Of a stretch of 32,000 bases of DNA, positions 591 through 18,704 are shown piece by piece. How positions within the stretch are numbered: position 1 is the first letter of the stretch; every line of letters begins with the position of its first letter. The translations under genes were made by a program, and so were the position numbers. The DNA is from Candidatus Scalindua sp. GTDB taxonomy: Bacteria; Planctomycetota; Brocadiia; Brocadiales; Scalinduaceae. Under the pieces are notes generated by a model, which worked only from the letters and a program-made list of their open reading frames with translations, was not told the DNA's origin and made no database searches. The stretch is from assembly GCA_031316235.1 (NCBI GenBank), contig JALDRA010000001.1, positions 3,420,001-3,452,000 on the forward strand. The letters run 5' to 3'.

Positions 591-1304
591 ATGAAAAGTT
601 TAATTCGTTATTTCTTGTTTGTTCTGTTTATTTGTTTTGTAGGTTCGGCAACTCTTGTCGCACAGGAAGCGCTTACTGAAGAGCAGGCAAAGGCTGCGCA
701 GCAGAAATTGGAAGAGGCACTGAAATCTCTTAAAAAAGAGATCAGGACAGAAGTTAAGGTTGAAAATGGCGGTGCTATCACCGGTATCGTCGCATGTAAG
801 AGAGTGAAGCATCCCGATAATGTTGTGGTGTATATTGAGAAAATAGGGGATAAGACCTATGATGCTCCTGTGGAGCATGGTGTTTTGGATCAGCTGAATT
901 TGACATTCGTTCCTCATGTTGTTGCGGTGCAGAAGGGAACCACAATAGATTTTCCCAATAGCGACTCGGTGCGTCACAACGTTTTTACCCCTCCTGATTG
1001 CTGCCGTCAGTTTAATTTGGGTACATATGACGTAGGCGTGGTCAAGAGTGTCACATTTGAAGAAACCTGTGATGTTCCGATTTTGTGCAACGTGCATGCC
1101 GAGATGCTGGGCTATGTTGTTGTACTTGATAATCCGTACTTTTCTGTAACGGAGAAAGATGGGGTTTTCAAGATTGAAAATATACCACCTGGTACCTATA
1201 AGCTTGCAGCCTGGCATGAAAAGCTCCAGACGGTTGTTAAAGATGTTACGGTAGAGGCAGGCAAGACAGTAAATGTTGATTTTCAATTAAAGAAGAGAAA
1301 ATAA
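591..1304 (+). CDS. Secreted cupredoxin-like (type-1 Cu ligand pattern) protein with C-terminal CarboxypepD_reg-like beta-sandwich
   Basis: The ORF track gives 564..1304, but ATG 591 is preceded by GAAGGAGAGG (571-580). The N-terminus is signal-like (FLFVLFICFVGSATLVAQE). His in SVRHNV plus CNVHAEM (C-x2-H-x2-M, amicyanin-type loop) give the copper ligand set. The C-terminus GVFKIENIPPGTYKLAAWHEKL...VNVDFQL is beta-sandwich-like. It is a paralog of 8646..9416. Confidence 0.75.
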   Translation: MKSLIRYFLFVLFICFVGSATLVAQEALTEEQAKAAQQKLEEALKSLKKEIRTEVKVENGGAITGIVACKRVKHPDNVVVYIEKIGDKTYDAPVEHGVLDQLNLTFVPHVVAVQKGTTIDFPNSDSVRHNVFTPPDCCRQFNLGTYDVGVVKSVTFEETCDVPILCNVHAEMLGYVVVLDNPYFSVTEKDGVFKIENIPPGTYKLAAWHEKLQTVVKDVTVEAGKTVNVDFQLKKRK

Positions 1305-1328
1305 ACCATTTATTTGGTGGGCGTTAAA

Positions 1329-1880
1329 ATGATACAGGAAATGGGAGATAAAGGGTTTGATGCAGGGTGTTCCGGGTCACATGGCGGGCATGTTGTGAAA
1401 AAGACAATAAGCCGAAGGAGATTTTTTTATCTCGTTGGTTGGGGTTTTATAGCCGCGTTTATGATGGGGGTTAGTGGGGCTATTATACGCTTTTTTTTCC
1501 CACGTGTTTTATTTGAGCCTCCGACAAGATACAAGTTAGGCTTTCCGTCAGAATATACCCTGGGTGTTAGTGAGAAATTTAAGAAACAATTCAGGGTGTG
1601 GGTAGTTCGTGAAGCAGACAGGATTTATGTTATTGAGGCGAAATGCACACACCTGGGCTGTACTCCAAACTGGTTGTCAACAGAGAAAAAGTTCAAGTGT
1701 CCTTGTCATGGAAGCGGCTTTACTCCAGATGGGATAAATATCGAAGGTCCTGCACCGAGACCATTAGAGAGGTTTCAGGTTTCAGTCGGTGAAAGCGGGC
1801 AGTTGGAGGTGGATGAGGGTATACGGTTCCGTGGTGAAAAGGGTGAATGGAATAAGCCGGGTGCTTTCGTCCCGGTATAG
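1329..1880 (+). CDS. Rieske [2Fe-2S] subunit of a Rieske/cytochrome b complex
   Basis: Rieske boxes CTHLGC and CPCHGS are present, with one N-terminal TM helix (FFYLVGWGFIAAFMMGVSGAII). ATG 1329 has GGTGGG 7 nt upstream. The ORF-track alternative start is TTG 1314. Confidence 0.9.
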   Translation: MIQEMGDKGFDAGCSGSHGGHVVKKTISRRRFFYLVGWGFIAAFMMGVSGAIIRFFFPRVLFEPPTRYKLGFPSEYTLGVSEKFKKQFRVWVVREADRIYVIEAKCTHLGCTPNWLSTEKKFKCPCHGSGFTPDGINIEGPAPRPLERFQVSVGESGQLEVDEGIRFRGEKGEWNKPGAFVPV

Positions 1881-2024
1881 TTGTAGAATGGTTGTTTTTT
1901 GTCTATATTGATGGTGCTTGACTGATTAAATCTTGTACGGGTGTGAACACCGCATACGTTGGAATGTGGATTTTGCCTGAAATGAAGCTCTGGTTGAAAG
2001 ATGTAAGTTATTGGGCTTCCTGGT

Positions 2025-2897
2025 TTGATGAGTTTAGAACTTGGTTGTGTGTTGCTGGGGGGTGTGAAATTGGGAAACAATACAGAAAAAGGAAAATTGT
2101 CGAAAATACTTGGATTGGTAAAAGAGAAGGGTGTTGTCAATGCAATCAAGGATACGGTCTTGAGTACTCAGATCTGGCGTTCCTTTTTTCGTCATGGACT
2201 TGAGGATACACCGAAAACCAGGATGGAGACAATTATCGGTAACTCTTTTCTCCATCTTCATCCAGCTAAAGTGAAGAGGCACGCACCATTATTTCGGTTC
2301 ACCTGGTGCATGGGGGGTATTACCTTTTTTTTATTTCTGGTTTTGACGATAACAGGTGTGTTCCTGATGTTTTATTATCACCCTAATGTAAGGGATGCTT
2401 ACTGGGATATGAAAGGTTTGGAGTACCATGTGCCTTTCGGTACATTGCTGCGGAACCTGCATCGATGGGGTGCTCATTTGATGGTTATAGCGGTTTGGTT
2501 TCATATGTTTAGGGTGTTTATGACGGGTTCATATAAGCCGCCGCGTGAATTTAACTGGGTCATAGGAGTGGTTTTATTGGTGATGACGTTGCTTTTGAGC
2601 TTTACCGGGTATCTGCTGCCGTGGGATCAGTTGGGTTTTTGGGCTGTGACTGTAGGCACAAACATGGCACGAGCGACTCCTCTTCTGGGACATGAAGGGC
2701 CTTTTGGTGATCTGTTAGGTATGACTGCGTATAACGATATCAGGTTTGCCCTGCTGGGTGGTTCACTTGTGGGGGGGAATGCATTGTTGAGGGCATATAT
2801 CTGGCACTGCATTGGTTTGCCGATGATCGTGAGTACTTTCTTGATTGTCCATTTCTGGAGAGTTCGTAAAGATGGTGGTATTTCAGGTAAATTGTAA
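2025..2897 (+). CDS. Cytochrome b6-type subunit (N-terminal four-helix part of cytochrome b)
   Basis: [18 protein letters not shown] has two His 14 apart and [18 protein letters not shown] has two His 15 apart, giving four heme-b ligands with b6-type spacing. WCMGGITFF resembles the heme ci Cys motif, and [10 protein letters not shown] is present. The start is uncertain: in-frame GTG 2064 and TTG 2070 follow a GGGGGG run (2057-2062). Confidence 0.9.
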
Positions 2898-2917
2898 GGT
2901 TTGAGGAGGGTTTGAGA

Positions 2918-3055
2918 GTGGAGAATATCTGGTTGATTATAAGCAAGCCTGATAATGTACCTATCGTGGGTTTGATTTTGCTTTTAGTTCTTTTTACGTG
3001 GATGTCTTTTAGCCAGGCGTCAAAAAACGATCGTCAGGCGAACGATGACAGTTAA
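2918..3055 (+). CDS. Candidate 45-aa single-TM micro-protein between the cyt b6 and flavoprotein genes
   Basis: Below the ORF-track size cutoff. GTG 2918 lies 8 nt after GAGGAGG (2903-2909). Translation is VENIWLIISKPDNVPIVGLILLLVLFTWMSFSQASKNDRQANDDS, with one hydrophobic helix and a polar tail. It fills an otherwise unexplained 204-nt gap. Confidence 0.4.
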   Translation: MENIWLIISKPDNVPIVGLILLLVLFTWMSFSQASKNDRQANDDS

Positions 3056-3101: not shown

Positions 3102-4796
3102 TTGAAATATAGGGTTGTACAAGCAGACGAAAGCTGGTTTAGTGAAAATATAAACTGTCAACATGCCTGCCCGGCGCATACTCCCGCTTCTAATTATATT
3201 GAAAGGTTGCAGGAGGGAGATTTTGAGGGTGCGTTGAAGTTGAATTATATGGCGAACCTATTTCCTCACATATTAGGCCGTGTATGTACACATCCTTGTG
3301 AGGCGGCTTGTCGAAGGGGAGCCATAGACAAACCAATTGCTATATGTACCTTGAAGAGGGTTGCCGCTGATTTTGCAGATCCGGATGTTCACCCGGAAAA
3401 GCCAAAAAAAATAAAAAACACAGGAAAAAAGGTTGCAGTAGTCGGTGCCGGACCATCCGGACTTGCTGCCGCTAATGATCTGGCCTTACTGGGGTATTCT
3501 GTAACGGTATACGAGGCGTTGCCGATGGCGGGTGGTATGCTGAGTGTAGGTATACCTCCTTATAGACTGCCATGGAATAGAATAGAAAGTGCGGTGAAGT
3601 GGGTTGAGGAATTGGGGATAAAGATAAAGCTCAATAGCCCGGTAAAAGATGAGGCTGAGCTTGATGCCTTGATCAGGAACTACGATGCTGTTTATCTGGC
3701 TGCCGGGGCTCACAAGTCACCTTCGCTTGAAATAGCCGGAGAAGATCTTGATGGCGTGGTGCACGGTATCAGGTTTATGAAAGATATCAACCTGGGTATT
3801 CTGAAAAAGGTACCTTCAAAAGTGGCTGTTGTTGGTGGTGGCTTTACGGCAATTGATTGTGCCCGTTCGTCCCTGAGACTGGGGGCGAAGGAGGTTTCAA
3901 TCATTTACAGGAGAACCTTGAAAGAGATGCCGGCTGGGGAGCTCGAAGTCTCTATGGCAGAGGAAGAGGCGATAAAGATTCTCTTTCTGACTACACCTGT
4001 CCGGGTGCTTGGGGATGCGGATGGGAAGGTGAAAGCCATAGAGTGTCTCATGAACAAGCTTGGGGAGCCTGATAACAGCGGCAGGAGGAGACCGGAACCA
4101 ATTCAGGGTAGTGAGTTTAAAATACCTGTAGATATGGTGGTTGCCGCTATCGGGCAATCGGCTGATACGGGTTTTGTATCCGAGGGTTTGGGAGTGAAGA
4201 TGACGAGATGGGGTACTATTAAAGTGGATCCCAGGACATTGATGTCTGACAGGGCAGGTCTTTTTGTTGGTGGTGACTACCTGACTGGTCCGAGGAATGT
4301 TATTGAGGTTATTGCTGACGGAAGGCAGGTGGCAAAAGCGATCGATGAATACCTTGGAGTGGCTCAGGAGAGAGAGGTTAACTATTTTTTCTCCGACGGT
4401 GAGCCTGTCAGGAACGTAGACAACTATGATGATCTGCCTCGTCAAAAACAGCAGGCACTGTCAATGGATACAAGATGGGATGTTGATAAAGAGGTGGAGC
4501 TGGGATTTACCAAACATGATGCTCAAAAAGAGGCAGATCGATGTTTGCTGTGTCATTATAATATTTTTATAGATGATCAAAAATGTATTTTGTGTGGTGG
4601 GTGCATCGATATCTGTCCGCACAACTGCATCATGATGATCTCGCGTGATAAAATTGAATCAGAGGGTGAAGTGGCTGGTAATTGGGATGCTGTTATGGCC
4701 ATTGACGAGGAGAAATGCATAAGGTGTGGACTCTGCGTAAGGAGATGCCCGGTGGATGCAATTAAGATGAAAAGATTCTCATATGTTGAGAGGTGA
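3102..4796 (+). CDS. NAD(P)H-dependent FAD oxidoreductase, glutamate synthase small-subunit (GltD)-like, with C-terminal 2x[4Fe-4S] ferredoxin domain
   Basis: The N-terminal Cys clusters CQHACP and RVCTHPCEAAC are Fer4_20-like. Two dinucleotide-binding folds are present (VAVVGAGPSGLAAA and VAVVGGGFTAIDCA). The C-terminus carries CILCGGCIDICP and CIRCGLCVRRCP. No TM helix is visible. The start is TTG at 3102. Confidence 0.85.
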   Translation: MKYRVVQADESWFSENINCQHACPAHTPASNYIERLQEGDFEGALKLNYMANLFPHILGRVCTHPCEAACRRGAIDKPIAICTLKRVAADFADPDVHPEKPKKIKNTGKKVAVVGAGPSGLAAANDLALLGYSVTVYEALPMAGGMLSVGIPPYRLPWNRIESAVKWVEELGIKIKLNSPVKDEAELDALIRNYDAVYLAAGAHKSPSLEIAGEDLDGVVHGIRFMKDINLGILKKVPSKVAVVGGGFTAIDCARSSLRLGAKEVSIIYRRTLKEMPAGELEVSMAEEEAIKILFLTTPVRVLGDADGKVKAIECLMNKLGEPDNSGRRRPEPIQGSEFKIPVDMVVAAIGQSADTGFVSEGLGVKMTRWGTIKVDPRTLMSDRAGLFVGGDYLTGPRNVIEVIADGRQVAKAIDEYLGVAQEREVNYFFSDGEPVRNVDNYDDLPRQKQQALSMDTRWDVDKEVELGFTKHDAQKEADRCLLCHYNIFIDDQKCILCGGCIDICPHNCIMMISRDKIESEGEVAGNWDAVMAIDEEKCIRCGLCVRRCPVDAIKMKRFSYVER

Positions 4797-4856: not shown

Positions 4857-5684
4857 ATGGCGGAAGATAAAGAGACAACAAAGGGAAGATACCGGGCGCT
4901 TGCGTTTGTCAAAGGGGAAACCCTGGCCAAGGAGAAGGATAGGGAAGTCGGGAAGGATGAAGTTCATACCTGGCCATATTTGGTGAGGGTAGAATTTCTT
5001 GCAGCCATCATTATGACCATTATATTGATGATCTGGGCTATTACGCTCGATGCGCCACTGGAGGATCCATCAGACCCTACATTGACTCCTAATCCGGCAA
5101 AGGCACCATGGTATTTTCTCGGGTTACAGGAAATGCTTGTGTATTTTGATCCGTGGATAGCTGGGGTTGTGTATCCATCTTTGATAGTTATCGGACTGAT
5201 GGTTATTCCATATGTGGATATTAATCCCAAGGGAAATGGTTATTACACTCTCAAGGAGAGAAAATTCGCAATACTTACTTTTTGTTTCGGTTTCCATGTG
5301 CTTTGGATATTACTGATCATTGTGGGTGTTTTTATGCGGGGGCCCGGTTGGATCTGGTTCTGGCCATGGGAAACCTGGGATGCTCACCGAGTGGTAGCTG
5401 AGACGAATTACGATCTTACTCACTTTATTGGAGTCGATTCAAAATCTTTCCTCGGTTCTGTTATCGGGGGTAGTGTTGTAGTACTCTACTATTTCATTAC
5501 GATGACTATACCGTTTCTATTCTTGAAATTTATTGGGAGCCCGACTCTTGAAAAAATGGGGATAATGCGGTATACAATTGTAGCGTTTTTGTTCTGGACA
5601 ATGATGACGTTGCCGATTAAGATGTTTTTGAAATTGGTTTTTCACATGAAATATATTTGGGTAACCCCGTGGTTTAATATATAG
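4857..5684 (+). CDS. Cytochrome b C-terminal part / subunit IV-like membrane protein (with extra C-terminal helices)
   Basis: PNPAKAPWYFLGLQE is a variant of the PEWY Qo-site motif. Several hydrophobic helices are visible. ATG 4857 is preceded by GAAGGGGA. Confidence 0.8.
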   Translation: MAEDKETTKGRYRALAFVKGETLAKEKDREVGKDEVHTWPYLVRVEFLAAIIMTIILMIWAITLDAPLEDPSDPTLTPNPAKAPWYFLGLQEMLVYFDPWIAGVVYPSLIVIGLMVIPYVDINPKGNGYYTLKERKFAILTFCFGFHVLWILLIIVGVFMRGPGWIWFWPWETWDAHRVVAETNYDLTHFIGVDSKSFLGSVIGGSVVVLYYFITMTIPFLFLKFIGSPTLEKMGIMRYTIVAFLFWTMMTLPIKMFLKLVFHMKYIWVTPWFNI

Positions 5685-5714
5685 TAAAATGCGATTAAGG
5701 AAAGCTGGCATATA

Positions 5715-8561
5715 ATGAATAGATTAGAAGACAAATCATATGTAGGAAGGTACGTACTGTTAAGTTTGATACTTCTGTTTACGATGGTTGGTGCCATTTG
5801 GAATGAATTAATTGTAAAAAGGCCATGGAAATACTTTCAATCACGTTTTCATGAACTGGAGTATAATAATGCCAAGGCTCTGTATGACAAAGCTGTTGAG
5901 GCATTTAATGACCCAGAGATTCACAAAGAGTATCTTACCCTTGCTGCAAATTTGAAGGATGCTAACGAAAATTTTAACAGGCCGATTATTCAGGATGAGT
6001 ATCAGAAGGTGTTGAAAAAGCTGGAGAAACTCGATAAGGATGAGTTGGAACCATTAAAATTCGAGGCTATACTTACCCGTAATAAGCTTCAGGAAGAGGC
6101 GTATGTATATGGCAGGAGTAAAAAAGAAGAAACATTGAAAGCCATCGAGGGCCTGGAACAGAAAAATAAAGACTTAGCTGAAAAAATAGGCAAACTTGAA
6201 GATAAAAGAGCAGTATTACAAAGTAAGGTTGATGCATTTAAGAGCAAGATTATCACGTATGAAAATGAGCTGAAGATCTTTACGGCTGATGTTGATAAAT
6301 ATCGGACTTTGTTAAATAATATTAATGCAAAACGACCGGGGTTACAGCGCTATCAGGTGCATCTGGAGGCGATTAATGAAGCTGACAGGTGTATGTCCTG
6401 TCACCCGGGAATAGATCGAAGTGAGAGTGTTTCAGAAGAGCAGCCATATGCGAGTCATCCGAGGAGAGATATTTATCTCGGGAATCACCCGCCTGAAAAG
6501 TTTGGTTGTGTCCTGTGTCATGAGGGACAGGCTAGAGCGACTACCAGTCCTGAGAAAGCTCATGGAGAAGTTGAATTCTGGTTACGGCCGATGCTCAAGG
6601 GGGATATGATCCAATCCTCATGCATTTCCTGTCACTCAAATGTTGTCGGGCTGGAAGGTGCGGAAAAGATTTCCGAAGGGTGGAAGCTTTTTAATGAGGC
6701 TGGCTGTTTTGGATGTCATCAGGTGGAGGGGTTCGGCGGGGACAAATTTATGATGATTGGTCCAAATCTGACTGAATTGGGTAGTAAAGTGAATGCTGTT
6801 TGGCTATATCATTGGTTGATGGCACCTAAAGATTACAGGCCCTCTGCCAGGATGCCGGATTTTATGTTGGAAGAGTCTGAGGCAAAAGCTATATCCTCTT
6901 ATCTCTGGCAGAACTCAGAAGGTTTTGATGCGGGTGCTGCTGAGGAGTTCGATGATGAGACTATTGATGATGGAGCATACATTTTTGAAAGTATCGGTTG
7001 CCTGGCATGTCATAGCGAAATAGAAGAAGATGGTCAGGTGCATGGGCCTAATCTGGCAAGGATCGGAGAAAAGGTCAACTTTGAATATCTGGTCAGCTGG
7101 CTCTTGAATCCGAAATTACACCAGCCTGACACTACGATGCCGAATTTCCGTCTTGATGATGAGAGCGCGCGGTTACTCGCAGCATTTCTGACAACTCTTA
7201 CAAGCGATGGTTTCGAGACTTCTGATGAAGAAACAGAGTGGATAGAAGATGAAGAGCTGGCAGCACAGGGGAAAAACCTGATCGGCAGGTATGGTTGTTT
7301 TGGCTGTCATGAAATAAGAGGGATGGAAGGAAGAGGAAAAATTGGAGTCGAATTGTCGGATATAGGTTCTAAGCACGTACATCTCTTTGATTTCGGATTG
7401 AAGGAACATGAGATGATTCATGAATTGGGGATTAAGCACCCGACGGAAAACGTCGCTGCTGCCAGGAGGGCATGGATTGAGGCGAAGTTAACCGACCCGC
7501 GACAATTTGATGAAGGTCGATATAAGAAGCCGTCTGACAGGCTGATAATGCCGAACTTTGGATTGACAGAAGAGGAAGTTAAGCTGATTACAGCGGTTCT
7601 TCTGGGTATGAGAGAGGGAGAAATGCCAGAGGAGTACCGTTTTCAAACTACTGATGATCAGAAAGCGATTCTTGAGGGGAAGAGGGTTGTCAGAAAATAT
7701 AACTGTACTGGATGCCATCAATTCAGCATAGATACACTGTATTTGAATAATGGAACTGTATTGAAGGGTATGGTCAAACTGGAAGAGGAAGATAATCTCT
7801 TTTTTCAACTATGGGAAGATAATGCGGCTTTTGGCAGAGAGGCTGGTGAGACTGCCCAGATTCCGACATCACAAATTAAAAACCGGGTTTATGCTGAAGG
7901 GGGAGATATTGGCTCTTTCATAATTGATTATCACGTCGAGGTTGAAGGGCGTGTGCCTGAGGAGGCAAATGTGTTCACGCCTCCCGTCCTCTATAAAGAG
8001 GGAGAGAAAGTACAGAGTAACTGGGTGTTCGATTTTCTTGAAGAACCGTTTCCTTTACGTCCTTGGCTTGAAGTCCGTATGCCGACGTTTAAATTACCTT
8101 CAGAGGAGGCAACATCGTTATCACGCTACTTTGCGATTCTGGAAGGTGAGGAGTATCCCTATGAATTTATTAAAGAGACGAAAAAAAGTTACATAGCCCA
8201 AAAGGAAGAAGAGTGCCCGGGTTATCTGGATGATGCGCGTAGGTTGTTTGACTCAAAGGATGTAAATTGCGCTTCCTGTCATGTAAGAGGTTCAATAACA
8301 CCTGATGGTGAGCCATCGAGCTGGGCTCCAGATTTGTCTCTGGCAAAATATAGGCTGAAGCCTGACTGGATTAAGAGGTGGTTACTGGATCCGCAGCTTA
8401 TCCAGCCAGGAACAAAAATGCCGAAGCTGTTCAGGGAAGGGGTATTTCAGGATATTTTTCCTGGTGAACCTGGTGAACAGGCTGAGGCACTAAAGGACCT
8501 TCTGATGAACTTTCCGGATGAAATGGTTGGCGAGGGTGAGGATGCAGACTCGGAAGAGTAA
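5715..8561 (+). CDS. Membrane-anchored octaheme c-type cytochrome with long N-terminal helical stalk
   Basis: Eight CxxCH motifs: CMSCH, CVLCH, CISCH, CFGCH, CLACH, CFGCH, CTGCH, CASCH. There is one N-terminal TM helix (YVLLSLILLFTMVGAIW). Residues ~43-207 are charged and heptad-like with no Cys. Confidence 0.85.
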   Translation: MNRLEDKSYVGRYVLLSLILLFTMVGAIWNELIVKRPWKYFQSRFHELEYNNAKALYDKAVEAFNDPEIHKEYLTLAANLKDANENFNRPIIQDEYQKVLKKLEKLDKDELEPLKFEAILTRNKLQEEAYVYGRSKKEETLKAIEGLEQKNKDLAEKIGKLEDKRAVLQSKVDAFKSKIITYENELKIFTADVDKYRTLLNNINAKRPGLQRYQVHLEAINEADRCMSCHPGIDRSESVSEEQPYASHPRRDIYLGNHPPEKFGCVLCHEGQARATTSPEKAHGEVEFWLRPMLKGDMIQSSCISCHSNVVGLEGAEKISEGWKLFNEAGCFGCHQVEGFGGDKFMMIGPNLTELGSKVNAVWLYHWLMAPKDYRPSARMPDFMLEESEAKAISSYLWQNSEGFDAGAAEEFDDETIDDGAYIFESIGCLACHSEIEEDGQVHGPNLARIGEKVNFEYLVSWLLNPKLHQPDTTMPNFRLDDESARLLAAFLTTLTSDGFETSDEETEWIEDEELAAQGKNLIGRYGCFGCHEIRGMEGRGKIGVELSDIGSKHVHLFDFGLKEHEMIHELGIKHPTENVAAARRAWIEAKLTDPRQFDEGRYKKPSDRLIMPNFGLTEEEVKLITAVLLGMREGEMPEEYRFQTTDDQKAILEGKRVVRKYNCTGCHQFSIDTLYLNNGTVLKGMVKLEEEDNLFFQLWEDNAAFGREAGETAQIPTSQIKNRVYAEGGDIGSFIIDYHVEVEGRVPEEANVFTPPVLYKEGEKVQSNWVFDFLEEPFPLRPWLEVRMPTFKLPSEEATSLSRYFAILEGEEYPYEFIKETKKSYIAQKEEECPGYLDDARRLFDSKDVNCASCHVRGSITPDGEPSSWAPDLSLAKYRLKPDWIKRWLLDPQLIQPGTKMPKLFREGVFQDIFPGEPGEQAEALKDLLMNFPDEMVGEGEDADSEE

Positions 8562-9416: not shown

Positions 9417-9548
9417 TTGATACAGATGATTTGAAAATTTTTATTTATCTGTAATTTTTCTGTCTCAAAATCTTTAGACTCGATTAAAATAATTTTTTTT
9501 ACATATTTTGTAAAATTACTAATTAGGTAAAAACTAACATTGAATACC

Positions 9549-12618: not shown

Positions 12619-13389
12619 ATGCAGAAAAAGAAACATTCATATTCGATGATATGGGCCATAATCTCGATACTTATTGTCTTTTGTATAATTAAATTTGTAT
12701 CACCATATGCGTTCATGATGCTGTTGGGTAAAGATCATACAATGCCAACTCCCAGTACCTTAATGTTATGGTACATGATTCTTGGTGTTCTGGGAGCGCT
12801 TGTCTATGTTTCTACCAGTGATTTAAAATGGGCAAACTTTTTAAGTTTCATGCTTCCGGGTGAGGATGACCGGACCAAGAAGATGCTCCAAAAGTTGATC
12901 GTGGTTGCATTTCCTTTGTTGCTGGGCTGGTTTGTCTATTCAGGAACTTCTCCTGGAACAGCATCTCCTGTTGAGCTGAGGATACAGCATCCTACTTTGC
13001 TGCAAAAGTATGAAAAAATGGAGAATCCATTCGCACACGTATCCGAAGAATTAAAAGAGCGCTATATTGAAGAAGGAAAGCACCTTTATCAACAGAACTG
13101 CCGGCCCTGCCATGGTTCAAAGGCCGATGGAAACGGTCCTTTCGCCAATTCGTTTCGATTGCGACCTATTAATTTTACTGATCCCGGTACAATAGCAACA
13201 GTTGTTGAGAGTTTCGCCTTCTGGCGTATTATGGAGGGTGGCCCCGGGTTGCCAGATGAGTCTACACCATGGGACTCTGCAATGCCTGCATGGGAAGGAA
13301 CACTGACAGATGATCAGGTTTGGAAGATTATTATGGGAGAATATGCAACTGCCGGGGTGAAACCAAGGCAGAGGGAGGAAATGGAATAG
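12619..13389 (+). CDS. Monoheme c-type cytochrome with three N-terminal TM helices
   Basis: A single CRPCH followed by GSKADGNG (class I / cbb3-type cytochrome c domain). Three hydrophobic segments precede it. GAAGGA SD lies upstream. Confidence 0.8.
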   Translation: MQKKKHSYSMIWAIISILIVFCIIKFVSPYAFMMLLGKDHTMPTPSTLMLWYMILGVLGALVYVSTSDLKWANFLSFMLPGEDDRTKKMLQKLIVVAFPLLLGWFVYSGTSPGTASPVELRIQHPTLLQKYEKMENPFAHVSEELKERYIEEGKHLYQQNCRPCHGSKADGNGPFANSFRLRPINFTDPGTIATVVESFAFWRIMEGGPGLPDESTPWDSAMPAWEGTLTDDQVWKIIMGEYATAGVKPRQREEME

Positions 13390-13470: not shown

Positions 13471-15219
13471 ATGAGCAAAAAAAAAGAGCAGTCAAATTAT
13501 TATTTTGAGTTTACGAGATATCTTTTTTTGATACTTGTTGCTTTCGTGCTTTTTTCACGATTTGGGTATACACAGACCTCTCAGCTCTTTAGGACGTATA
13601 AGAGTGAGATCACCGGTAAAGTACCTGAAACCCAGGATGCGGTTGCGGCAGGAAAGAAAATTTACGAAAAGAAGTGCTACTACTGCCATGGGATCAAGGG
13701 TGACGGGAAAGGTTCTGATGCCCTTAGGCTTAATCCAAGGCCGAGAAATTTCATCAGGAACGAGTATAAAATACGTTCAACACCTCTTCATGAACTTCCG
13801 ACTGATGAAGATCTTTTCAGGATTATAACAAGCGGAATTGAGGGAACAGATATGCCCTTTTGGAGTTCACTGTCCAGTGAAGAGAGGTGGCAGGTCGTTT
13901 ATTACATAAAAACTTTCAATACTGCTTTTGAAAAAAAATCTCAGAACGCATCAACTTCTGGTGGCAACGAGATTCCGGTGAGCCCGGAGTCAGTTAAAAT
14001 TGGTAGTGAGCTCTTTAAAGATGCAAAATGCGTAAACTGTCACGGTGAGGGTGGTAAGGCTGATGGTAAAATAACTACGACATTAGAGGGCATCTGGGAT
14101 CGTCCCTATCGTGCAAGGAATCTGACGAAAAGCTGGCTTTTTAAAGGTGGTAATGCTGCTTCAGATATTCATAGAACCCTGACGAATGGATTAAATGAAA
14201 CACCGATGGGTTCCTATGCAGAATATCTGTCAGATGAGGAGCGATGGCATCTGGCTCATTATGTCAAATCAATTTCTAAAACAATGGATACCGATGTGGT
14301 GCTTACCTCGAAAATAGTAGAAAGTTATCTTCCTGCTGGACCCGATGATCCGGTCTGGGATACAATCACCTCGGTTGAATTGCCATTGGCCGGGCAGATC
14401 ATCGCTAAACCGAGACAGTGGATGCCGTCCGTTGATTCAATCAAGGTCAAGTCTTTTTTTACTGATGAGTATATTGTCTTTCTGCTTGAGTGGGACGATA
14501 CGACAAACGAGCAGAATGAGACGTTTAGTGATTCGGTAGCCTTACAATTTCCCACATCAATCCCTGATGGATCTGAGAAACCCTATTTTGCGATGGGTAG
14601 TTCCGGGAAGGGTGTTACGATATGGCAATGGAGGGCGTATGATGAATCTCTTCAAATTGCCGAAAATGATTTAGAAGAAACGGATAAGGCGGACACAGCA
14701 ACCGATGGTGGCAGCAGCCTGGATGATAAAGAGGTTGAAGAAGATTCCGGTGATGTGGGTGTAAACACCCCTGAAAATGAGCAGGCAGAGATTGTTGAAG
14801 AAGAAGAGATGAAGCCTCTTTTTACCGAGTTTGCAACTTTAAGGGAAATGAATGCAAAGGGCTTTACGAATGTGAGCGTTCAGCCTTCCAGCAGCCAGCT
14901 TACCCGGGGACTTGGGGTATGGAGAAATGGTAAATGGAAGGTAATGGTAGCCAGTCCGATAGCCACAAATGACAAGAAGCTCGATATTCAATTTGAAGAG
15001 GGAAAGCTCATACCGTATGCCTTGGCGGTATGGGACGGATCTAAGCAGGAGGTTGGTGGGCTTAAATCTATTTCATCTTGGTATTATTTGAATTTGGAGA
15101 AAGTTACACCAAAAAGTGTCTATTTTTATGTTGTTATTGCAATAATAATTGGAACCAGTATTCAATTTTGGGTTATTGGAAGAGTAAGACGATTTCCCCC
15201 GAAGGTTAATGAAGAATAA
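13471..15219 (+). CDS. Diheme cytochrome c fused to an EB_dh (ethylbenzene dehydrogenase gamma / NxrC-NarC-like) heme b domain, C-terminal TM anchor
   Basis: CYYCHGIKGDGKG and CVNCHGEGGKADG form a CcoP-like diheme unit. The EB_dh-like strings are VALQFPTS..PYFAMGSSGKGVTIWQWRA and ALAVWDGSKQEVGGLKSISSWYYL. An acidic insert spans 14641-14817. The C-terminal TM is VYFYVVIAIIIGTSIQFWVIG. Confidence 0.7.
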   Translation: MSKKKEQSNYYFEFTRYLFLILVAFVLFSRFGYTQTSQLFRTYKSEITGKVPETQDAVAAGKKIYEKKCYYCHGIKGDGKGSDALRLNPRPRNFIRNEYKIRSTPLHELPTDEDLFRIITSGIEGTDMPFWSSLSSEERWQVVYYIKTFNTAFEKKSQNASTSGGNEIPVSPESVKIGSELFKDAKCVNCHGEGGKADGKITTTLEGIWDRPYRARNLTKSWLFKGGNAASDIHRTLTNGLNETPMGSYAEYLSDEERWHLAHYVKSISKTMDTDVVLTSKIVESYLPAGPDDPVWDTITSVELPLAGQIIAKPRQWMPSVDSIKVKSFFTDEYIVFLLEWDDTTNEQNETFSDSVALQFPTSIPDGSEKPYFAMGSSGKGVTIWQWRAYDESLQIAENDLEETDKADTATDGGSSLDDKEVEEDSGDVGVNTPENEQAEIVEEEEMKPLFTEFATLREMNAKGFTNVSVQPSSSQLTRGLGVWRNGKWKVMVASPIATNDKKLDIQFEEGKLIPYALAVWDGSKQEVGGLKSISSWYYLNLEKVTPKSVYFYVVIAIIIGTSIQFWVIGRVRRFPPKVNEE

Positions 15220-16729
15220 TACAATGAAAAAAAATAATTTGATAATCAGAAATCTTGAACTACTTGCTGCAACTGGGCTTTTTATTTTTTCAATTATTGT
15301 ATTGACCCCTTTGTCAATTCGTGCAGAAGCCAACAAGGATCAGAAGTTTTATCTAGAGATAGAGGAGTTATACAACGGTAAAAAAGAGTATAAGCAGCTG
15401 CCGATACAGCTGGAGGATCCATATGATCGCTCGAAAAATGGTCCTACGCTCAAGAATGTTATCCACAAGGCAAGCAAAGAGTGGTTGAAGAAGTGGATAG
15501 ATAATCCAACCTCCATGATTCCAAATGCTCGTATGCCGAGACTTATGTTAAGTGAAAGTGAGATTGAAGCAGTTCTGGCGTATTTAACAAGCATTGCCGA
15601 TAAGGATATTCCCCGACAGAAGTGGGATGAATACCTTATGAAAAGTGAAGATGATATGACCGACGATGAGTATGATGAAATGAATGATTTGAGCGATAAG
15701 GGTAAAGGTGTATGGGGAAGGGCACGTTGTAATATATGCCATCCAGTTAAAGGTAAAGGAGGTTCTGTTGATGTCGGGCCAGATCTCGGCAGGTTAGCGG
15801 AGAAATTGAACCGTGACTGGTTATATATGTGGATTAAAGAACCAAAAAGCCATTTCCGTGATACTCAAATGCCACGATATCGATTCAGTGATGATGAGAT
15901 ACGTCAATTGGTAGAATTTCTCATGCAGTCATATGATTTTAAACCTGAAGAGAGCGATGATGAGGAAAATGAATCAGATTCTCAGGAAAATGATTCTGGA
16001 TCAGGAGAACCTGAAGATGATACTGAAAAGGAAGGTTCAATAAGGGTCTCATCGCTTATCCCTGAAGGCTCTTTAATTGAAAAGGGTAAGAGGATTATTG
16101 AACTGAACAGATGCACTATCTGCCATGAAATTGAAGGGATAGCAGATCTTCTCCCTGTTAAAGAACCCAGTGTAGAACCTGAAAATACCTTTGCACATTT
16201 ATTGAATGATGTTCGTTGTATGACGTGTCATAAAATACAGGGTAATGGTGGTTCTTATGCTCCTGAACTGACACATGAAGGGAGCAAACTTAAACAGAAA
16301 TGGATTAAGGGTTTCTTACAGAAGCCTGATATTATCCGTCCTCTATTACAGCAGATGCCTAAATTTAACATTACTGAGGATGAGGCTGAGCTTGCAGTTG
16401 AGTTTATTGAGGAATACTTTGTAAACGACGATATTCCTGTTGCAAAGTTTGCCGACAGAGAGCCAACTGACGAGGAAATCAGTAAAGGTAAGGAGCTTTA
16501 TGATGTAAAGGGGTGTAGAAGTTGCCATGCGATACAAGAGGGAGGAATTGTTGGTCCAACATTAAAAAGAGTTGGTGACAGGTTAGAAAATGGTTTTATA
16601 TATCATCATCTGAAAAATCCTCACCTGGAAGTTCCTGATGGAGTTGAACCAAATTTTCAATTTTCGGATGAAGAGGCGGTTGCTATCACGAATTATCTGA
16701 TGTCATGTAAGGATAAGGAAAAAAATTAA
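15209..16729 (+). CDS. Membrane-anchored tetraheme c-type cytochrome with an N-terminal heme-less cytochrome-c-like domain
   Basis: Motifs CNICH, CTICH, CMTCH and CRSCH. It overlaps the previous stop by 11 nt; the alternative ATG is 15224. The N-terminal hydrophobic anchor is LELLAATGLFIFSIIVLTPL. An acidic linker reads DDEENESDSQENDSGSGEPEDD. Confidence 0.8.
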   Translation: MKNNTMKKNNLIIRNLELLAATGLFIFSIIVLTPLSIRAEANKDQKFYLEIEELYNGKKEYKQLPIQLEDPYDRSKNGPTLKNVIHKASKEWLKKWIDNPTSMIPNARMPRLMLSESEIEAVLAYLTSIADKDIPRQKWDEYLMKSEDDMTDDEYDEMNDLSDKGKGVWGRARCNICHPVKGKGGSVDVGPDLGRLAEKLNRDWLYMWIKEPKSHFRDTQMPRYRFSDDEIRQLVEFLMQSYDFKPEESDDEENESDSQENDSGSGEPEDDTEKEGSIRVSSLIPEGSLIEKGKRIIELNRCTICHEIEGIADLLPVKEPSVEPENTFAHLLNDVRCMTCHKIQGNGGSYAPELTHEGSKLKQKWIKGFLQKPDIIRPLLQQMPKFNITEDEAELAVEFIEEYFVNDDIPVAKFADREPTDEEISKGKELYDVKGCRSCHAIQEGGIVGPTLKRVGDRLENGFIYHHLKNPHLEVPDGVEPNFQFSDEEAVAITNYLMSCKDKEKN

Positions 16730-16750
16730 ATTTTTCGAAAAAAAATTATT

Positions 16751-17380
16751 ATGAGAAAATTAATTCAAACTACGGCTTTAAAATTTATTGTTGTTTTAAC
16801 AGCATCATTCTTAGTTTCAAATATTTTTCTTCGTGTAGTTATCAGTGAAGAAGCAGTTACAGAAGTGGCTGTAGAAATCAAGAAAATTATCTTGCTTGAA
16901 GAACAGAAACCTTATCTAACAACGCCGAAGAATACGTTTAATTATTACTGTGCACCTTGCCATGGAGACAAAGGGAATGGAAAGGGGATCTATTTTACTA
17001 TAGACCTTGAACCAAAACCAAGGGACCTTACAGATGTTGAATACATGGCAAAGCTGACCGATGATTACCTGCTCAATTACATCAAAACAGGCTCAGCAGC
17101 AATGGGAAAGTCAGATTTATGTCCACCATGGGGAGGGACCTTTGATGAGAAGAGAATAAAAGAAATAATCGGTCATATTCGATCACTGACAATTGCAAAA
17201 TCGGGTAGTGGTGAAAAAGCTGTCACCGGTACTGAAGATGTAGCCGCAGCCAAAGCGTCGGCTGCCGATGATACGCCTATGTTCATTAAATGGGGTGTGC
17301 TCATTTTCTTGTGTCTCGTATGTATGTTTGCTGCACGTAAAGAGTGGAAGAAACTGAAATCGGAAACTGAGTCTAAATAG
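16751..17380 (+). CDS. Monoheme c-type cytochrome with N-terminal signal/anchor and C-terminal TM helix
   Basis: CAPCHGDKGNGKG motif and a C-terminal helix WGVLIFLCLVCMFAA. Confidence 0.8.
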   Translation: MRKLIQTTALKFIVVLTASFLVSNIFLRVVISEEAVTEVAVEIKKIILLEEQKPYLTTPKNTFNYYCAPCHGDKGNGKGIYFTIDLEPKPRDLTDVEYMAKLTDDYLLNYIKTGSAAMGKSDLCPPWGGTFDEKRIKEIIGHIRSLTIAKSGSGEKAVTGTEDVAAAKASAADDTPMFIKWGVLIFLCLVCMFAARKEWKKLKSETESK

Positions 17381-17456
17381 GTGTTAATAGATTCATTGTT
17401 ACCGCTGCTATCGGTACTATACACAAATTTCAATATTTATTTGAGAACTTTATAAA

Positions 17457-18704
17457 TTGTTTAAAAAGATATTTATTCCGATCGATAATTCAAGATTTTC
17501 AGAATACTGTTCGGAAATAGGGATAACATTAGCAAGGAAATTTGACTCCGAGGTTATTGGTGGACACGTGTATGCCGCTAATTTACATCACCAGCGATTT
17601 AAGGAGATGGAAAGTGGTTTACCGGTACAGTACCGTAATGAGGAGGAGCTAAAAAAACAGAGAGAATTCCATAATTCCCTGATTGGTCGAGGTCTCAGAA
17701 TGATTTCTGACTCATATCTCGACAAACTCGAAAAGAGATGTAAGGATAATAGCCTACCATTCAAACGGAATTTACAGGAAGGAAAAAATTATATTGAGTT
17801 GGTAAATCAGATTATCGATAATCACTATGATTTAGCAATTATCGGTGTAAGAGGACTTGGGGAAGTGTCTGACAAGGTTATCGGCAGTGTCTGCGAGAGA
17901 GTTGTCAGGCGGATAAATGCTGATGTTCTAATCGTGAAGAACGATAGACCCATTGATGGCAGGGTACTTGTTGCCGTCGATGGAAGCGAACAGTCTTTCA
18001 GGTCGGTTGACATAGCATGTAAATTAGCACAGAATTTTGATATAGAGATCGATGCTCTGTCTGTTTATGATCCTCATTTTCACAGAGTTGCATTTGAAGG
18101 TATTGCAAAGGTGATTTCCGGCGAGATGGAAACTGTTTTTAAATCAGAGGAGCAGGAAGAGCTTCATGACAATGTGATCGATAAGGGGCTGGAGAAAATC
18201 TATCATGATCATCTGCAGGTTACTATTAAGAAAACAAAGGAGTACGGTATTGATATTAAGACAACACTACTTGAAGGAAAATCGTACGATCAGATTTTAA
18301 AGTATCAGGATAAGGTTAAACCTTCGCTTCTGGTGATCGGCCGTACCGGTATGCACACAAACAAGGGTTTGGATCTCGGTAGTGCGACCGAGAACATATT
18401 ACGCTTTGCAGATTGTAACGTTCTTATTACAAAAAATGTCATGGCTGATAACGTCAACCCTTTTTTTGAAAAGATGAAAGAGGATCAGGGAATTGAAAGA
18501 GATGTAACTGTCGCCTCTGAAGTTCGGGAAATTGCATGGAATGAAGATGCAAGATTGTTGATGTCTAAAGTGCCTGCATTTGTAAGAGAAATGGTAAAAA
18601 AAGAAGTTGAAAGTTATGCTTCTAAAAATGCGAAGAGCATTATTACCGGGGAAGTTGTCGAGGAAGCTAAAGCAAAATGGGCAAATGTAATGAACATTTC
18701 CTGA
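17457..18704 (+). CDS. Tandem universal stress protein (USP-USP) fused to a C-terminal PCP_red-like domain
   Basis: TTG start giving MFKKIFIPIDNS. There are two USP-like units (IFIPIDNS...VLIVKN and VLVAVDGSEQS...VIGRTGMH...NVLITKN). The C-terminal EIAWNEDARLLMSKVPAFVREMVKKEVESYA resembles the PCP_red domain. Confidence 0.7.
   Translation: MFKKIFIPIDNSRFSEYCSEIGITLARKFDSEVIGGHVYAANLHHQRFKEMESGLPVQYRNEEELKKQREFHNSLIGRGLRMISDSYLDKLEKRCKDNSLPFKRNLQEGKNYIELVNQIIDNHYDLAIIGVRGLGEVSDKVIGSVCERVVRRINADVLIVKNDRPIDGRVLVAVDGSEQSFRSVDIACKLAQNFDIEIDALSVYDPHFHRVAFEGIAKVISGEMETVFKSEEQEELHDNVIDKGLEKIYHDHLQVTIKKTKEYGIDIKTTLLEGKSYDQILKYQDKVKPSLLVIGRTGMHTNKGLDLGSATENILRFADCNVLITKNVMADNVNPFFEKMKEDQGIERDVTVASEVREIAWNEDARLLMSKVPAFVREMVKKEVESYASKNAKSIITGEVVEEAKAKWANVMNIS

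Follow-up and report, generated by a model that had tools for sequence, protein, structure and literature searches.

The window, i.e., the whole analyzed stretch of 32,000 nucleotides from Candidatus Scalindua sp., contains an array of 15 co-directional ORFs on the plus strand at positions 591 to 18,704 (first start at 564/591 in the ORF lists). The same 15 genes were obtained from independent gene calls on the identical Logan contig, which include a micro-ORF of 45–47 aa and place the start of O1 at the ATG at position 591. The gaps between the ORFs range from −11 nt (overlap of O12 and O13) to 144 nt. Gene number, common orientation and mostly short gaps had been proposed in the first-pass annotation of this DNA and were confirmed. 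The following features were identified:

1–590, plus strand: upstream non-coding sequence, part of a divergent intergenic region of approximately 1.1 kb
591–1304, plus strand: O1, exported cupredoxin-like protein; His139...C175-x2-H178-x2-M181; C-terminal CarboxypepD_reg beta-sandwich
1329–1880, plus strand: O2, Rieske 2Fe-2S protein; CTHLGC, CPCHGS, Tat motif SRRRFF, one TM; Pfam Rieske; counterpart of Kustd1480
2028–2897, plus strand: O3, cytochrome b6-like protein; H146/H160 and H261/H276 (haems bP/bN), C95 (haem cN); counterpart of Kustd1481
2918–3055, plus strand: O4, single-TM micro-protein of 45–47 aa in the position of kustd1482
3102–4796, plus strand: O5, cytoplasmic FAD/NAD(P)(H) oxidoreductase of the NfnB/GltD-like type, containing Fe-S clusters; counterpart of Kustd1483
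4857–5684, plus strand: O6, subunit IV-like (cytochrome b C-terminal/PetD) membrane protein; counterpart of Kustd1484
5715–8561, plus strand: O7, membrane-anchored octahaem cytochrome c of 948 aa whose N-terminal region is long and helical; counterpart of Kustd1485
8646–9416, plus strand: O8, exported cupredoxin-like protein; H141, N142, C177, H180, M183; counterpart of kustd1713
9540–11492, plus strand: O9, CydA-like ("bd-like") protein, OR-N2-type, 14 TM; counterpart of kustd1712
11626–12573, plus strand: O10, membrane-anchored dihaem cytochrome c; counterpart of kustd1711
12619–13389, plus strand: O11, monohaem cytochrome c with 3 TM; counterpart of kustd1710
13471–15219, plus strand: O12, fusion of a dihaem cytochrome c with an NxrC/EbdC-like haem-b domain, anchored by a C-terminal TM; counterpart of kustd1709
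15209–16729, plus strand: O13, membrane-anchored tetrahaem cytochrome c, overlapping O12 by 11 nt; counterpart of kustd1708
16751–17380, plus strand: O14, monohaem cytochrome c with hydrophobic segments at both termini; counterpart of kustd1707
17457–18704, plus strand: O15, cytoplasmic 2xUsp and PCP_red (BchB C-terminal-like) protein; counterpart of kustd1706
18705–19314, plus strand: downstream intergenic region; two weak terminator-like hairpins (18834–18851 and 19105–19123), consensus matches only

A NirJ/AhbD-like radical SAM gene is located divergently from O1, just beyond the window edge. The promoter-like site at 501–528 is a consensus match only, and such matches were not enriched compared to shuffled sequences. 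Promoter and terminator scans and intergenic folds over the array gave no informative signal. Based on the consensus hairpin matches, the region 18,705–19,314 is likely the end of the transcription unit. The genes 3′ of the array encode TPR and housekeeping proteins and are not nxrC/B/A.

The recount of CxxCH haem-c motifs yielded the 18 reported earlier, with 8 in O7, 2 in O10, 1 in O11, 2 in O12, 4 in O13 and 1 in O14, all of them in exported proteins. When the residues of these proteins were shuffled 2,000 times, a mean of 0.03 and a maximum of 2 motifs resulted. The CLLCH of O5 was rejected as a 19th site, since it is located in the ferredoxin-like domain of a cytoplasmic flavoprotein.

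Judged by Pfam, NCBIfam and PDB matches and by gene order, O2–O7 are an R/b-2-type Rieske/cytochrome b6 complex. Their order (Rieske, b6-like protein, small ORF, NAD(P) oxidoreductase, SUIV, large multihaem cytochrome c) is identical to Kustd1480–1485 of Kuenenia and to the stand-alone R/b-2 operon of Brocadia, to which the identity is 52–76% (70% for the Rieske protein). As in Kuenenia R/b-2, an HAO-like subunit is absent, unlike in R/b-3. The one Rieske centre recorded before was found in O2, with both cluster motifs and the Pfam domain; the Ser of CPCHGS is not followed by a Tyr, as reported for Kustd1480. The two His pairs of O3 align with the four haem-b His of spinach and cyanobacterial b6 and C95 with the haem cN Cys, in agreement with the earlier ligand assignment. 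O4 is kept in Scalindua sp. AMX11 (91%), in Brocadia (60%, uncalled there) and in a non-anammox planctomycete (55%). For O5, the Pfam domains Fer4_20, Pyr_redox_2 and 2x[4Fe-4S] and a match to the NfnABC chain 9bov_A (E = 2e-115) corroborate the FAD/NAD(P)H flavoprotein call. In contrast to the known R/b-2 operons, the cupredoxin gene O1 precedes the operon here and the bd-like module follows directly, whereas the Brocadia operon has no O1 counterpart and stands alone between unrelated genes.

O1 is a paralogue of O8 (35% identity, E = 6e-30). The copper-site motifs are CNVHAEM in O1 and CDVHTWM in O8, and the pattern His-Asn...Cys-x2-His-x2-Met is invariant among 25 homologues. The family profile matches the solved type-1 copper protein 5fc9 (8e-7) and amicyanin (1.6e-4). 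The two proposed type-1 copper sites are supported by these data, although Pfam Copper-bind scores O1 just under the cut-off (20.3 vs. 21.2 bits) and does not match O8.

O8–O15 are, by the same type of evidence, an OR-N2-type bd-like module. They are colinear with kustd1713–1706, the part of the Kuenenia nxr cluster that lacks the catalytic genes, and with eight loci of the Kuenenia/Brocadia type, in the order cupredoxin, CydA-like protein, dihaem, monohaem, dihaem/EB_dh, tetrahaem, monohaem and Usp protein (40–71% identity). With this, both likenesses named in the first-pass annotation, to Kuenenia bc-2 (R/b-2) and to the distal nxr cluster, are borne out by gene order. The surroundings differ: nxrC/B/A are replaced downstream by the TPR and housekeeping genes, and R/b-2 is found upstream where Kuenenia and Brocadia have fatty-acid or unknown genes. 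On fractionation of Kuenenia, the homologues kustd1705–1712 go with the membranes, and most of the cupredoxin kustd1713 is soluble; the latter matches the expectation for an electron shuttle. O15 was rejected as a redox carrier, being a cytoplasmic 2xUsp and PCP_red protein; at 33 of 80 loci, a homologue of it is found together with the bd-like module. The EB_dh call for O12 holds (97.7 bits vs. a cut-off of 33), with 6h5l_B (1e-45) and, for the C-terminal domain, Kuenenia NxrC (7b04_C, 8e-17) as PDB matches.

The CydA-like call for O9 was likewise upheld (Pfam Cyt_bd_oxida_I, 85 bits vs. a cut-off of 26), the match covering just the first ~243 of 418 CydA positions. Conserved residues are H63, Y143, E150, Y157, Y159, H172, H228, M389 and N393, and by these signature residues O9 is classified as an OR-N2-type member of the bd superfamily. 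As in Nitrospira OR-N2 (NIDE0901 type; classification of Murali, Gennis and Hemp), there are 14 TM helices, no CydB partner and no Q-loop, and several cytochromes c are encoded in the operon along with an EbdC homologue. Differences are the anaerobic host, the single CydA-like copy (a tandem second copy occurs in 22 of 80 loci), the two extra cytochromes O13 and O14 and the location downstream of a Rieske/cytochrome b operon. The haem-site residues of the family are conserved in 75–77 of 77 homologues, anammox included. The predicted structure of O9 (pLDDT 46) was too low in confidence to be used.

O9 had been described as an orphan, which does not hold, since its partners (cupredoxin, dihaem cytochrome c, 3-TM monohaem cytochrome c, dihaem-c/NxrC-like haem-b protein) are present in 53–63 of 80 loci from many phyla. 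The claim that the block lacks a catalytic terminal enzyme is doubtful. Genes for molybdopterin, HAO-like, haem-copper and NirS/NirK proteins were indeed found neither in the block, as stated before, nor in the remaining window or 3.5 kb upstream of it. However, the OR-N family has been proposed as the cytochrome-c-dependent terminal oxidase in Nitrospira/Nitrospirales, some of which have no other oxidase; none of the OR-N enzymes has been biochemically characterized. The O9 family derives mostly from aerobic, micro-aerobic or nitrite-oxidizing lineages. Given its OR-N membership, the CydA-like module stands out as the best candidate for a terminal enzyme of the array.

The absence of recognized N-cycle or haem-copper oxidase catalytic subunits and the many membrane-anchored cytochromes c could also indicate an electron "wire" with two quinone-interacting ends, without its own catalytic site and serving enzymes encoded elsewhere. 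This is highly improbable, since O9 still has the residues equivalent to H19, E107, H126, H186 and M393, which are ligands in the bd active-site region, and O5 itself is a catalytic NAD(P) oxidoreductase. A dedicated cofactor is also suggested by a NirJ/AhbD-like radical SAM gene that lies within or directly beside the bd-like module at 19 of 80 loci, which come from distant phyla. Of the two quinone-interacting modules assumed earlier, Rieske/cytochrome b stands as the sole demonstrable quinol site. A second site is not evident in O9, since OR-N proteins have no quinol-binding Q-loop and the CydA match is partial.

The array is a new combination of already known modules, for which we infer a function. 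Its architecture is identical in Scalindua sp. AMX11 (GCA_004282745.1) and hence not unique to the window; a description of the R/b-2 and bd-like join was not found in the literature searched, as had been supposed. nxrABC could not be found at the array, in the rest of the window or 3.5 kb upstream, and its absence here means that the join of the two modules is real. The O7/O8 junction was identified in the window, AMX11, L004, L005, L006, L056, L087 and L089, and in Scalinduaceae O7 is always directly upstream of O8.

A rearrangement in Scalinduaceae that joined two independent systems without functional meaning is unlikely, but has some points in its favor. Kuenenia and Brocadia keep the modules at separate loci, so that coupling is not obligatory at the gene level. 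The region is also prone to rearrangement, as seen in L006, L087 and L089, and the O7–O8 gaps of ~260–290 nt in marine Scalindua could hold a promoter. In the split arrays, however, O7, the gene of an integral R/b-2 subunit, stays with the bd-like genes and not with the R/b core: the junction persists where the flank is without O1–O6 (L006, L087) and where O6 and O7 are set apart by an ~8.5-kb insert that carries a toxin-antitoxin pair (L089). Rieske/cytochrome b, the bd-like genes and an O7-like multihaem protein stay together in three different gene orders, namely the window type, a second, paralogous array in S. rubra (L091; cyt b, SUIV, O7′, Rieske, O8′, O9′, O10′, O11′, O12′) and a non-anammox planctomycete (L072; O7-like, O8 to O12, convergent with Rieske, cyt b, O4 and SUIV). 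Co-location also recurs in other phyla: bd-like genes are flanked by Rieske/cyt b at two Nitrospirota loci, and pet genes were reported as typical neighbors of OR-N1/N5. A quinol:cytochrome c oxidoreductase directly upstream of a cytochrome-c-dependent terminal module is likewise known from Complex III/terminal oxidase gene fusions (ACIII with OR-N5 or caa3; petABD with OR-N1/N5). Here, in contrast, an NAD(P) oxidoreductase subunit and an octahaem cytochrome c belong to complex III, and the partner is OR-N2 of putative activity. The conserved junction and the S. rubra array favor a functional coupling, with the bd-like module as the predicted sink for the high-potential branch of R/b-2.

The location of the bd-like module beside nxr in Kuenenia, Brocadia, Nitrospira and Nitrospina fits an NXR-specific role equally well. 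O8–O14 could be the membrane partner of nitrite oxidoreductase and the array a nitrite-to-NAD(P)H path for CO2 fixation, in which NxrAB would deliver electrons to the NxrC-like domain of O12, O9 would reduce menaquinone as a pmf-driven, reversed alternative complex III, and the adjacent R/b-2, a proposed NAD(P)H maker, would use that menaquinol. This reverse electron transport is possible, if doubtful. O8–O15 homologues are located directly upstream of nxrC/nxrB in Brocadiaceae, e.g., in L010, where an EB_dh (NxrC-like) and then a Fer4_11 (NxrB-like) gene follow (Pfam). The role was proposed for the equivalent genes of Nitrospira and Nitrospina, the O12 domain matches Kuenenia NxrC, and reverse transport to quinol from cytochrome c is a long-standing postulate for anammox NXR. 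On the other hand, the known quinol-binding residues are absent from the OR-N family, and the bd-like module of Scalindua is not adjacent to nxrAB; in S. profunda, the haem-protein accessory genes and nxrAB were described on different contigs (2013). The O8–O12 module including the EB_dh-fused subunit is also found in Rhodothermales, Gemmatimonadota and many Proteobacteria. These lineages are not known as nitrite oxidizers. If they lack NXR, the EB_dh domain there would be an intrinsic subunit and not an NXR dock.

The best reading of the block is that of two membrane complexes in the anammoxosome respiratory chain, which most likely form one working branch (probability roughly 0.5). Menaquinol would be oxidized by R/b-2, which has been proposed to make NAD(P)H. 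One electron would move "uphill" via haems bP/bN/cN to the Fe-S clusters of O5, FAD and NAD(P)+. The other would move "downhill" via the high-potential Rieske cluster to the eight haems of O7. From there it would reach the cytochromes c in the bd-like module, either directly or with the soluble cupredoxins O8/O1 as carriers, and then O9. O9 would be the terminal sink, with O2 as acceptor under micro-oxic conditions. Against this role, anammox bacteria are anaerobes, so that an O2-reducing sink cannot serve the main metabolism. The same high-potential haem-c/copper pool may exchange electrons with nitrite oxidoreductase, which would explain why O8–O15 homologues adjoin nxrCBA in Kuenenia and Brocadia. 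The acceptor for the high-potential branch of R/b-2 is an acknowledged gap in the literature. With two known membrane respiratory modules united in one array, the likely electron partner of R/b-2 is now testable.

Between positions 591 and 18704, the window carries fifteen ORFs (O1 to O15), all of them on the forward strand. The co-directional set described in the first-pass annotation, with its micro-ORF O4 of 45 amino acids, was matched in full by the independent gene calls of an identical Logan contig. The elements referred to by position are as follows:

591-18704, +, the array O1 to O15
2918-3055, +, O4, micro-ORF between the cytochrome b6 and flavoprotein genes
5715-8561, +, O7, membrane-anchored octahaem cytochrome c
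8646-9416, +, O8, cupredoxin-like protein
9540-11492, +, O9, CydA-like protein
15209-15219, +, overlap of O12 and O13
17457-18704, +, O15, protein with two Usp domains and a PCP_red domain
25402-26448, -, SLAC1/TehA-family anion-channel gene about 7 kb downstream of the array

The intergenic distances range between -11 and 144 nt, with the widest gaps located between O2 and O3 (144 nt), O9 and O10 (133 nt) and O8 and O9 (123 nt). The overlap of 11 nt between O12 and O13 suggests translational coupling of these two genes. Neither promoter-like matches (54 compared to 44.9 +/- 6.9 in shuffled sequences) nor terminator-like matches (12 compared to 14.6) were enriched in the window, and the folding of six intergenic regions was no more stable than that of shuffles. 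An AT-rich hairpin followed by a U-run lies in the gap between O8 and O9; it might attenuate transcription after O8, although the case is not convincing. Scans of the window with Rfam and for tRNAs found no RNA genes.

The total of 18 c-type haems counted at first pass was exact (8+2+1+2+4+1 CxxCH motifs in O7 and O10 to O14), whereas a mean of 0.03 CxxCH motifs was obtained after shuffling the residues of the array proteins. A nineteenth motif belongs to a ferredoxin-like domain in O5, the cytoplasmic flavoprotein, and does not represent a haem site. According to the predicted topology, O1, O2, O7, O8 and O10 to O14 are exported or membrane-anchored, O3, O6, O9 and O11 are polytopic, and O5 and O15 are cytoplasmic. 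The synteny comparison showed that the 15-gene array is also complete in Scalindua sp. AMX11 (GCA_004282745.1), with 67-95% identity per protein. This identity is uneven (O6 95%, O3 and O9 92%, O7 78%, O12 72%, O14 67%), with faster evolution of the exported multihaem proteins than of the membrane cores. O9 is 93-94% identical to the AMX11 protein and to that of one related genome.

A resemblance to parts of Kuenenia clusters had been noted at first pass, and it was borne out gene by gene: O2 to O7 correspond to Kustd1480-1485, the Rieske/cytochrome b complex R/b-2, and O8 to O15 correspond to kustd1713-1706 in the distal part of the nxr (nitrite oxidoreductase) cluster. The calls of a Rieske protein, a b6-type cytochrome b, a subunit IV and an NfnB-like flavoprotein all hold on the basis of motifs and domain matches. 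O2 contains the motifs CTHLGC and CPCHGS together with the Tat motif SRRRFF and matches Pfam Rieske. In O3, H146, H160, H261, H276 and C95 align to cytochrome b6 as the four His ligands and the cN Cys, while O6, the subunit IV-like protein, matches Pfam Cytochrom_B_C. The NfnB/GltD-like Fe-S NAD(P) oxidoreductase O5 is encoded between cytochrome b6 and subunit IV, as in the Brocadia locus L088. O7, which replaces cytochrome f, carries eight CxxCH motifs and an N-terminal transmembrane segment and is 52% identical to its counterpart in Brocadia. There, the same genes form a stand-alone operon for the Rieske protein, cytochrome b6, an uncalled O4 homologue, the flavoprotein, subunit IV and a multihaem cytochrome c of 945 amino acids, with 52-76% identity between its proteins and those of the window. 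By composition and gene order, O2 to O7 represent the gene set of an R/b-2-type complex. The related complex R/b-3 was rejected for these genes, since the domain search of the window ORFs revealed no HAO-like domain or gene, which is the mark of that complex. For Kuenenia, a 2025 preprint gave Kustd1480-1485 the same makeup and described Kustd1485 as a very large protein with long helices; it called unclear what the numerous c-type haems located on the positive side do.

O4 homologues have a length of 45-47 amino acids with a single transmembrane segment. The protein is conserved at 91% identity in AMX11, 60% in Brocadia (L088:7002-7127, where the gene was not called) and 55% in a non-anammox planctomycete. 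kustd1482 is a small gene in Kuenenia, and O4 is probably the overlooked small subunit of the kustd1482 type.

In the second half of the array, each gene from O8 to O15 has its counterpart in the series kustd1713 to kustd1706 (conserved hypothetical/blue copper, cydA, dihaem, monohaem, dihaem, tetrahaem, monohaem, uspA), and this order is colinear in eight Kuenenia/Brocadia-type loci. The CydA-like call for O9 and the EB_dh call for the haem-b domain of O12 were both above the Pfam thresholds. The CydA match of O9 ends at profile position 243 of 418 and covers the N-terminal half only; the protein has 14 hydrophobic segments and a signal-like N-terminus. Its H63 aligns with His21 of Geobacillus CydA, the H19-equivalent haem ligand, and is conserved in 75 of 77 homologues. 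A canonical cytochrome bd quinol oxidase (CydAB) was rejected, because both CydB, which the Pfam domain search did not detect in the window, and the Q-loop are missing.

Murali et al. assigned the 14-TM "bd-like" protein of Nitrospina, Nitrospira and Kuenenia to the subfamilies OR-N1/N2 of the cytochrome bd superfamily. The OR-N2 signature tested comprises Tyr at E99, Glu at E107, Tyr/Tyr at F114/F116, His at H126 and H186, and Met/Asn at M393. In O9 it was found as Y143, E150, Y157, Y159, H172, H228, M389 and N393, with a spacing nearly identical to the reference residues Y183, E190, Y197, Y199, H213, H269, M430 and N434 (one interval differs by one residue). OR-N1 is distinguished by a Gly at the E107 position, where O9 has Glu. 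Judged by these residues, O9 is a member of OR-N2. OR-N2 operons typically encode several cytochromes c and an EbdC homologue, a pattern to which O10 to O14 and the EB_dh domain of O12 fit. OR-N proteins have no quinol site and their presumed donor is a cytochrome c; for O9 as well, we infer that quinol is not bound. In Nitrospirales, the OR-N enzyme is taken as a terminal oxidase and is the sole one in some cultured species. The OR-N2 identity of O9, the missing quinol site and the oxidase role in Nitrospirales leave two statements of the first-pass annotation unsupported, namely that the array contains two quinone-interacting modules and that it has no catalytic terminal enzyme.

Six His residues of O9 (H63, H172, H228, H260, H380 and H597, with H260 inside the invariant motif HYDWMGY) are conserved in 75-77 of 77 homologues. 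Canonical CydA has fewer known ligands for its three haems, so that O9 may possess additional haem or metal sites. The AlphaFold2 model of O9 reached a mean pLDDT of 46 and a pTM of 0.40 from an alignment of 10 sequences that are at least 68% identical, values too low for the model to be of use. An exact-match look-up of the CydA-like protein of S. japonica gave no record. O15, at the end of the array, combines its two Usp domains with a PCP_red domain resembling the BchB C-terminus and has no transmembrane segment. In a fractionation study of Kuenenia, the products of kustd1705-1712, including the O15 counterpart kustd1706, were as a group found mainly in the membrane fraction. O15 thus has the appearance of a conserved subunit or regulator on the cytoplasmic side.

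The two type-1 copper sites proposed for O1 and O8 were upheld, even though Pfam Copper-bind alone remained below threshold for both proteins. The ligand set H-N...C-x2-H-x2-M is invariant in 25 sequences of the family, its C-x2-H-x2-M part is kept in 53 of 55 homologues, and in the PDB the profile of the family hits blue-copper proteins of known structure (5fc9, 8.3e-7; the NirK cupredoxin domain, 4.3e-5; amicyanin, 1.6e-4). O1 and O8 are therefore predicted to be type-1 (blue) copper cupredoxins, and the Kuenenia homologues were called blue copper proteins in the fractionation study. In a third bd-like module of S. rubra (L086; MAYW01000001.1, 9012-17738), an O1-type cupredoxin with 72% identity is located directly upstream of the CydA-like gene instead of an O8-type protein, so that O1 and O8 appear interchangeable. 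The same module ends in a CBS-domain gene, which replaces the Usp/PCP_red gene. The O8 family shows a near-invariant Cys pair (C70 and C116) in its N-terminal domain, absent from O1, that could form a disulfide or a further metal site. An identification of O1 with kustd1699, a blue-copper gene that lies at the far end of the nxr cluster in Kuenenia, found no support, because in the AMX11 lineage the second paralogue resembling O1 (L090) is located amid HSP20 and TonB genes, away from nxr.

For the distribution of the bd-like module, a scan anchored on O9 with one genome per species yielded 80 loci. The CydA-like protein had been regarded as an orphan; this does not stand, since homologues of O10, O11 and O12 adjoin its gene in 63 of the 80 loci, and those lacking the set are mostly short contigs. 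The O8 cupredoxin is additionally present in 53 loci, the Usp/PCP_red protein in 33 (across phyla) and a second tandem copy of the module in 22. The hosts comprise Nitrospirota, Nitrospinota, Methylomirabilia, Rokubacteria, Gemmatimonadota, Rhodothermales, Myxococcota, KSB1, Poribacteria and alpha-, beta- and gamma-Proteobacteria.

In other Scalinduaceae, O7 is always found directly upstream of O8 to O15 and the position of the R/b core varies. The linkage of O7 to the bd-like genes deserves attention because in Brocadia it is the gene of an integral R/b-2 subunit. In L087 (a contig of 3.1 Mb) and L006, the NirJ/AhbD-like radical SAM gene is transcribed divergently from O7, and O1 to O6 are not nearby, while in L089 an insert of about 8.5 kb (toxin-antitoxin, methyltransferase, permease and radical SAM genes) separates O5-O6 from O7-O15. 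S. rubra has a paralogous array (L091; MAYW01000122.1, 16-13511) in the order cytochrome b, subunit IV, O7' (57%), Rieske, O8', O9' (59%), O10', O11', O12' and O8'', without a flavoprotein/NAD(P) oxidoreductase. In a non-anammox planctomycete, an O7-like gene and O8 to O12 are convergent with Rieske, cytochrome b, O4 and subunit IV, and two Nitrospirota loci carry Rieske/cytochrome b genes beside tandem bd-like modules. One possibility is that the R/b-2 and bd-like modules are merely adjacent, and if their coupling is not real, the finding shrinks to a lineage-specific variant in the gene order of known modules. The recurrent and differently ordered associations argue for a functional coupling of the Rieske/cytochrome b and bd-like modules. 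The general theme of complex III genes beside an OR-N module is not new, given its recurrence in these loci and the fact that Murali et al. list petA/B/D among the genes typically found next to OR-N1 and OR-N5. What sets the array apart is that the NAD(P)-linked R/b-2 of anammox bacteria is paired with an OR-N2 module whose place in other anammox genera is within the nxr cluster.

In the eight Kuenenia/Brocadia-type loci, an EB_dh (NxrC-like) match follows O15 wherever the contig reaches, and Pfam identified an EB_dh gene followed by an NxrB-like Fer4_11 gene in the Brocadiaceae locus L010. Molybdopterin, Fer4_11 and stand-alone EB_dh genes are absent from the 32 kb window and from 3.5 kb upstream of it. 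Downstream, the array is flanked by genes for TPR proteins, a SLAC1-family channel and housekeeping functions; upstream of the window are the divergent radical SAM gene and pyruvate kinase. Since these flanks hold no nxr-type genes, the two Kuenenia-type clusters are truly joined here in the absence of nxrABC. Strictly speaking, the array does not qualify as an nxr cluster: its accessory genes are colinear with kustd1706-1713, but nxrABC is unlinked. In another Scalindua genome, the SLAC1/TehA gene (L087:2394-3434) adjoins the radical SAM gene upstream of O7, and its presence in both neighbourhoods points to a local rearrangement. The array thus consists of two known kinds of gene set, R/b-2 and an OR-N2 bd-like operon that is equivalent to the accessory genes of an nxr cluster. 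Their combination is typical of Scalinduaceae, and the AMX11-like lineage has it without interruption. No description of this join was found in the searchable literature, which leaves out most papers in subscription journals, so that a prior mention is possible.

The radical SAM/SPASM gene just upstream of the window (L003:1593-3020, -; at full length in L087:3703-5460, -) is divergent from the array. Its product is closest to NirJ2 and the haem b synthase AhbD, below the cut-offs of both families, and shares the BchB-C-terminal (PCP_red) type of domain with O15. In 19 of the 80 loci, covering about ten phyla, homologues with 39-51% identity lie within the bd-like module or immediately next to it: 18 are non-anammox loci with the gene on the strand of the module, and one is the further Scalindua locus L006. 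The hosts are Nitrospinota, Gemmatimonadota, Rhodothermales, Calditrichia, Poribacteria, Latescibacterota, KSB1, Planctomycetota, Acidimicrobiia, Bdellovibrionales and Acidiferrobacteraceae. The conservation of an enzyme of this tetrapyrrole-related type suggests that O9 depends on a dedicated haem, which may be a modified one, with the radical SAM enzyme as maturase of a haem or tetrapyrrole cofactor; this favours a catalytic role of O9 over that of a mere wire. No mention of a link between radical SAM and bd-like genes was found in the searchable texts.

The most far-reaching reading is that R/b-2 and OR-N2 of Scalinduaceae form one physical or functional supercomplex. Quinol electrons would bifurcate to NAD(P)+ and, through O7 and a cupredoxin, to O9, whose haem would be modified by the co-located NirJ/AhbD-like enzyme. 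In the anoxic anammox cells, O9 would then have an N-oxide (NO or nitrite) as its substrate instead of O2. This full reading is a long shot, with a probability of roughly 0.12. In the main proposal, R/b-2 would oxidise menaquinol, and the first electron would reach NAD(P)+ by way of the b-type and cN haems and then the Fe-S clusters of O5. Such a bifurcation traces back to a proposal of Kartal et al., to which the Rieske potential of Kustd1480 (+335 mV) adds plausibility; the coupling of quinol oxidation to NAD(P)+ reduction in one complex is a proposal only, even for Kuenenia. The second electron would move from the Rieske cluster to O7 and from there to the cytochromes of the OR-N2 module, directly or through the cupredoxins, with O9 as the electron sink. 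In Kuenenia, the O8 homologue is mainly soluble and kustd1705-1712 are membrane-bound. NXR would feed or draw on the same high-potential pool, which would account for the nxr linkage in Brocadiaceae and nitrite oxidisers.

That linkage, together with older proposals, fits equally to the main rival explanation, in which the role of O9 is reversed and electrons run from NXR through O12 and O9 to menaquinone, after which R/b-2 generates NAD(P)H. Reverse transport requires a quinone site, none of which is visible in the OR-N family, and it would fit poorly with the occurrence of the module in lineages not known to oxidise nitrite.

If the supercomplex with an N-oxide-reducing O9 were true, O9 would be a respiratory reductase of a new type and would provide the missing drive for NAD(P)H synthesis. 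The arrangement itself links two questions, the source of NAD(P)H in anammox bacteria with the acceptor of the high-potential Rieske/cytochrome b electron, and the function of the widespread OR-N proteins. Three ties, namely the R/b-2 multihaem gene that stays with the bd-like module, the second array order within the genus and the Brocadiaceae module beside nxr, outline a candidate chain of R/b-2, O7, cupredoxin and OR-N2, with NXR feeding the same pool. The arrangement may likewise be relevant to the nitrite-driven O2 scavenging that was recently reported for Scalindua, with an electron route that was called unresolved. The parts and their sequences are public, and their arrangement provides the bioenergetics of anammox bacteria and nitrifiers with a specific wiring hypothesis.
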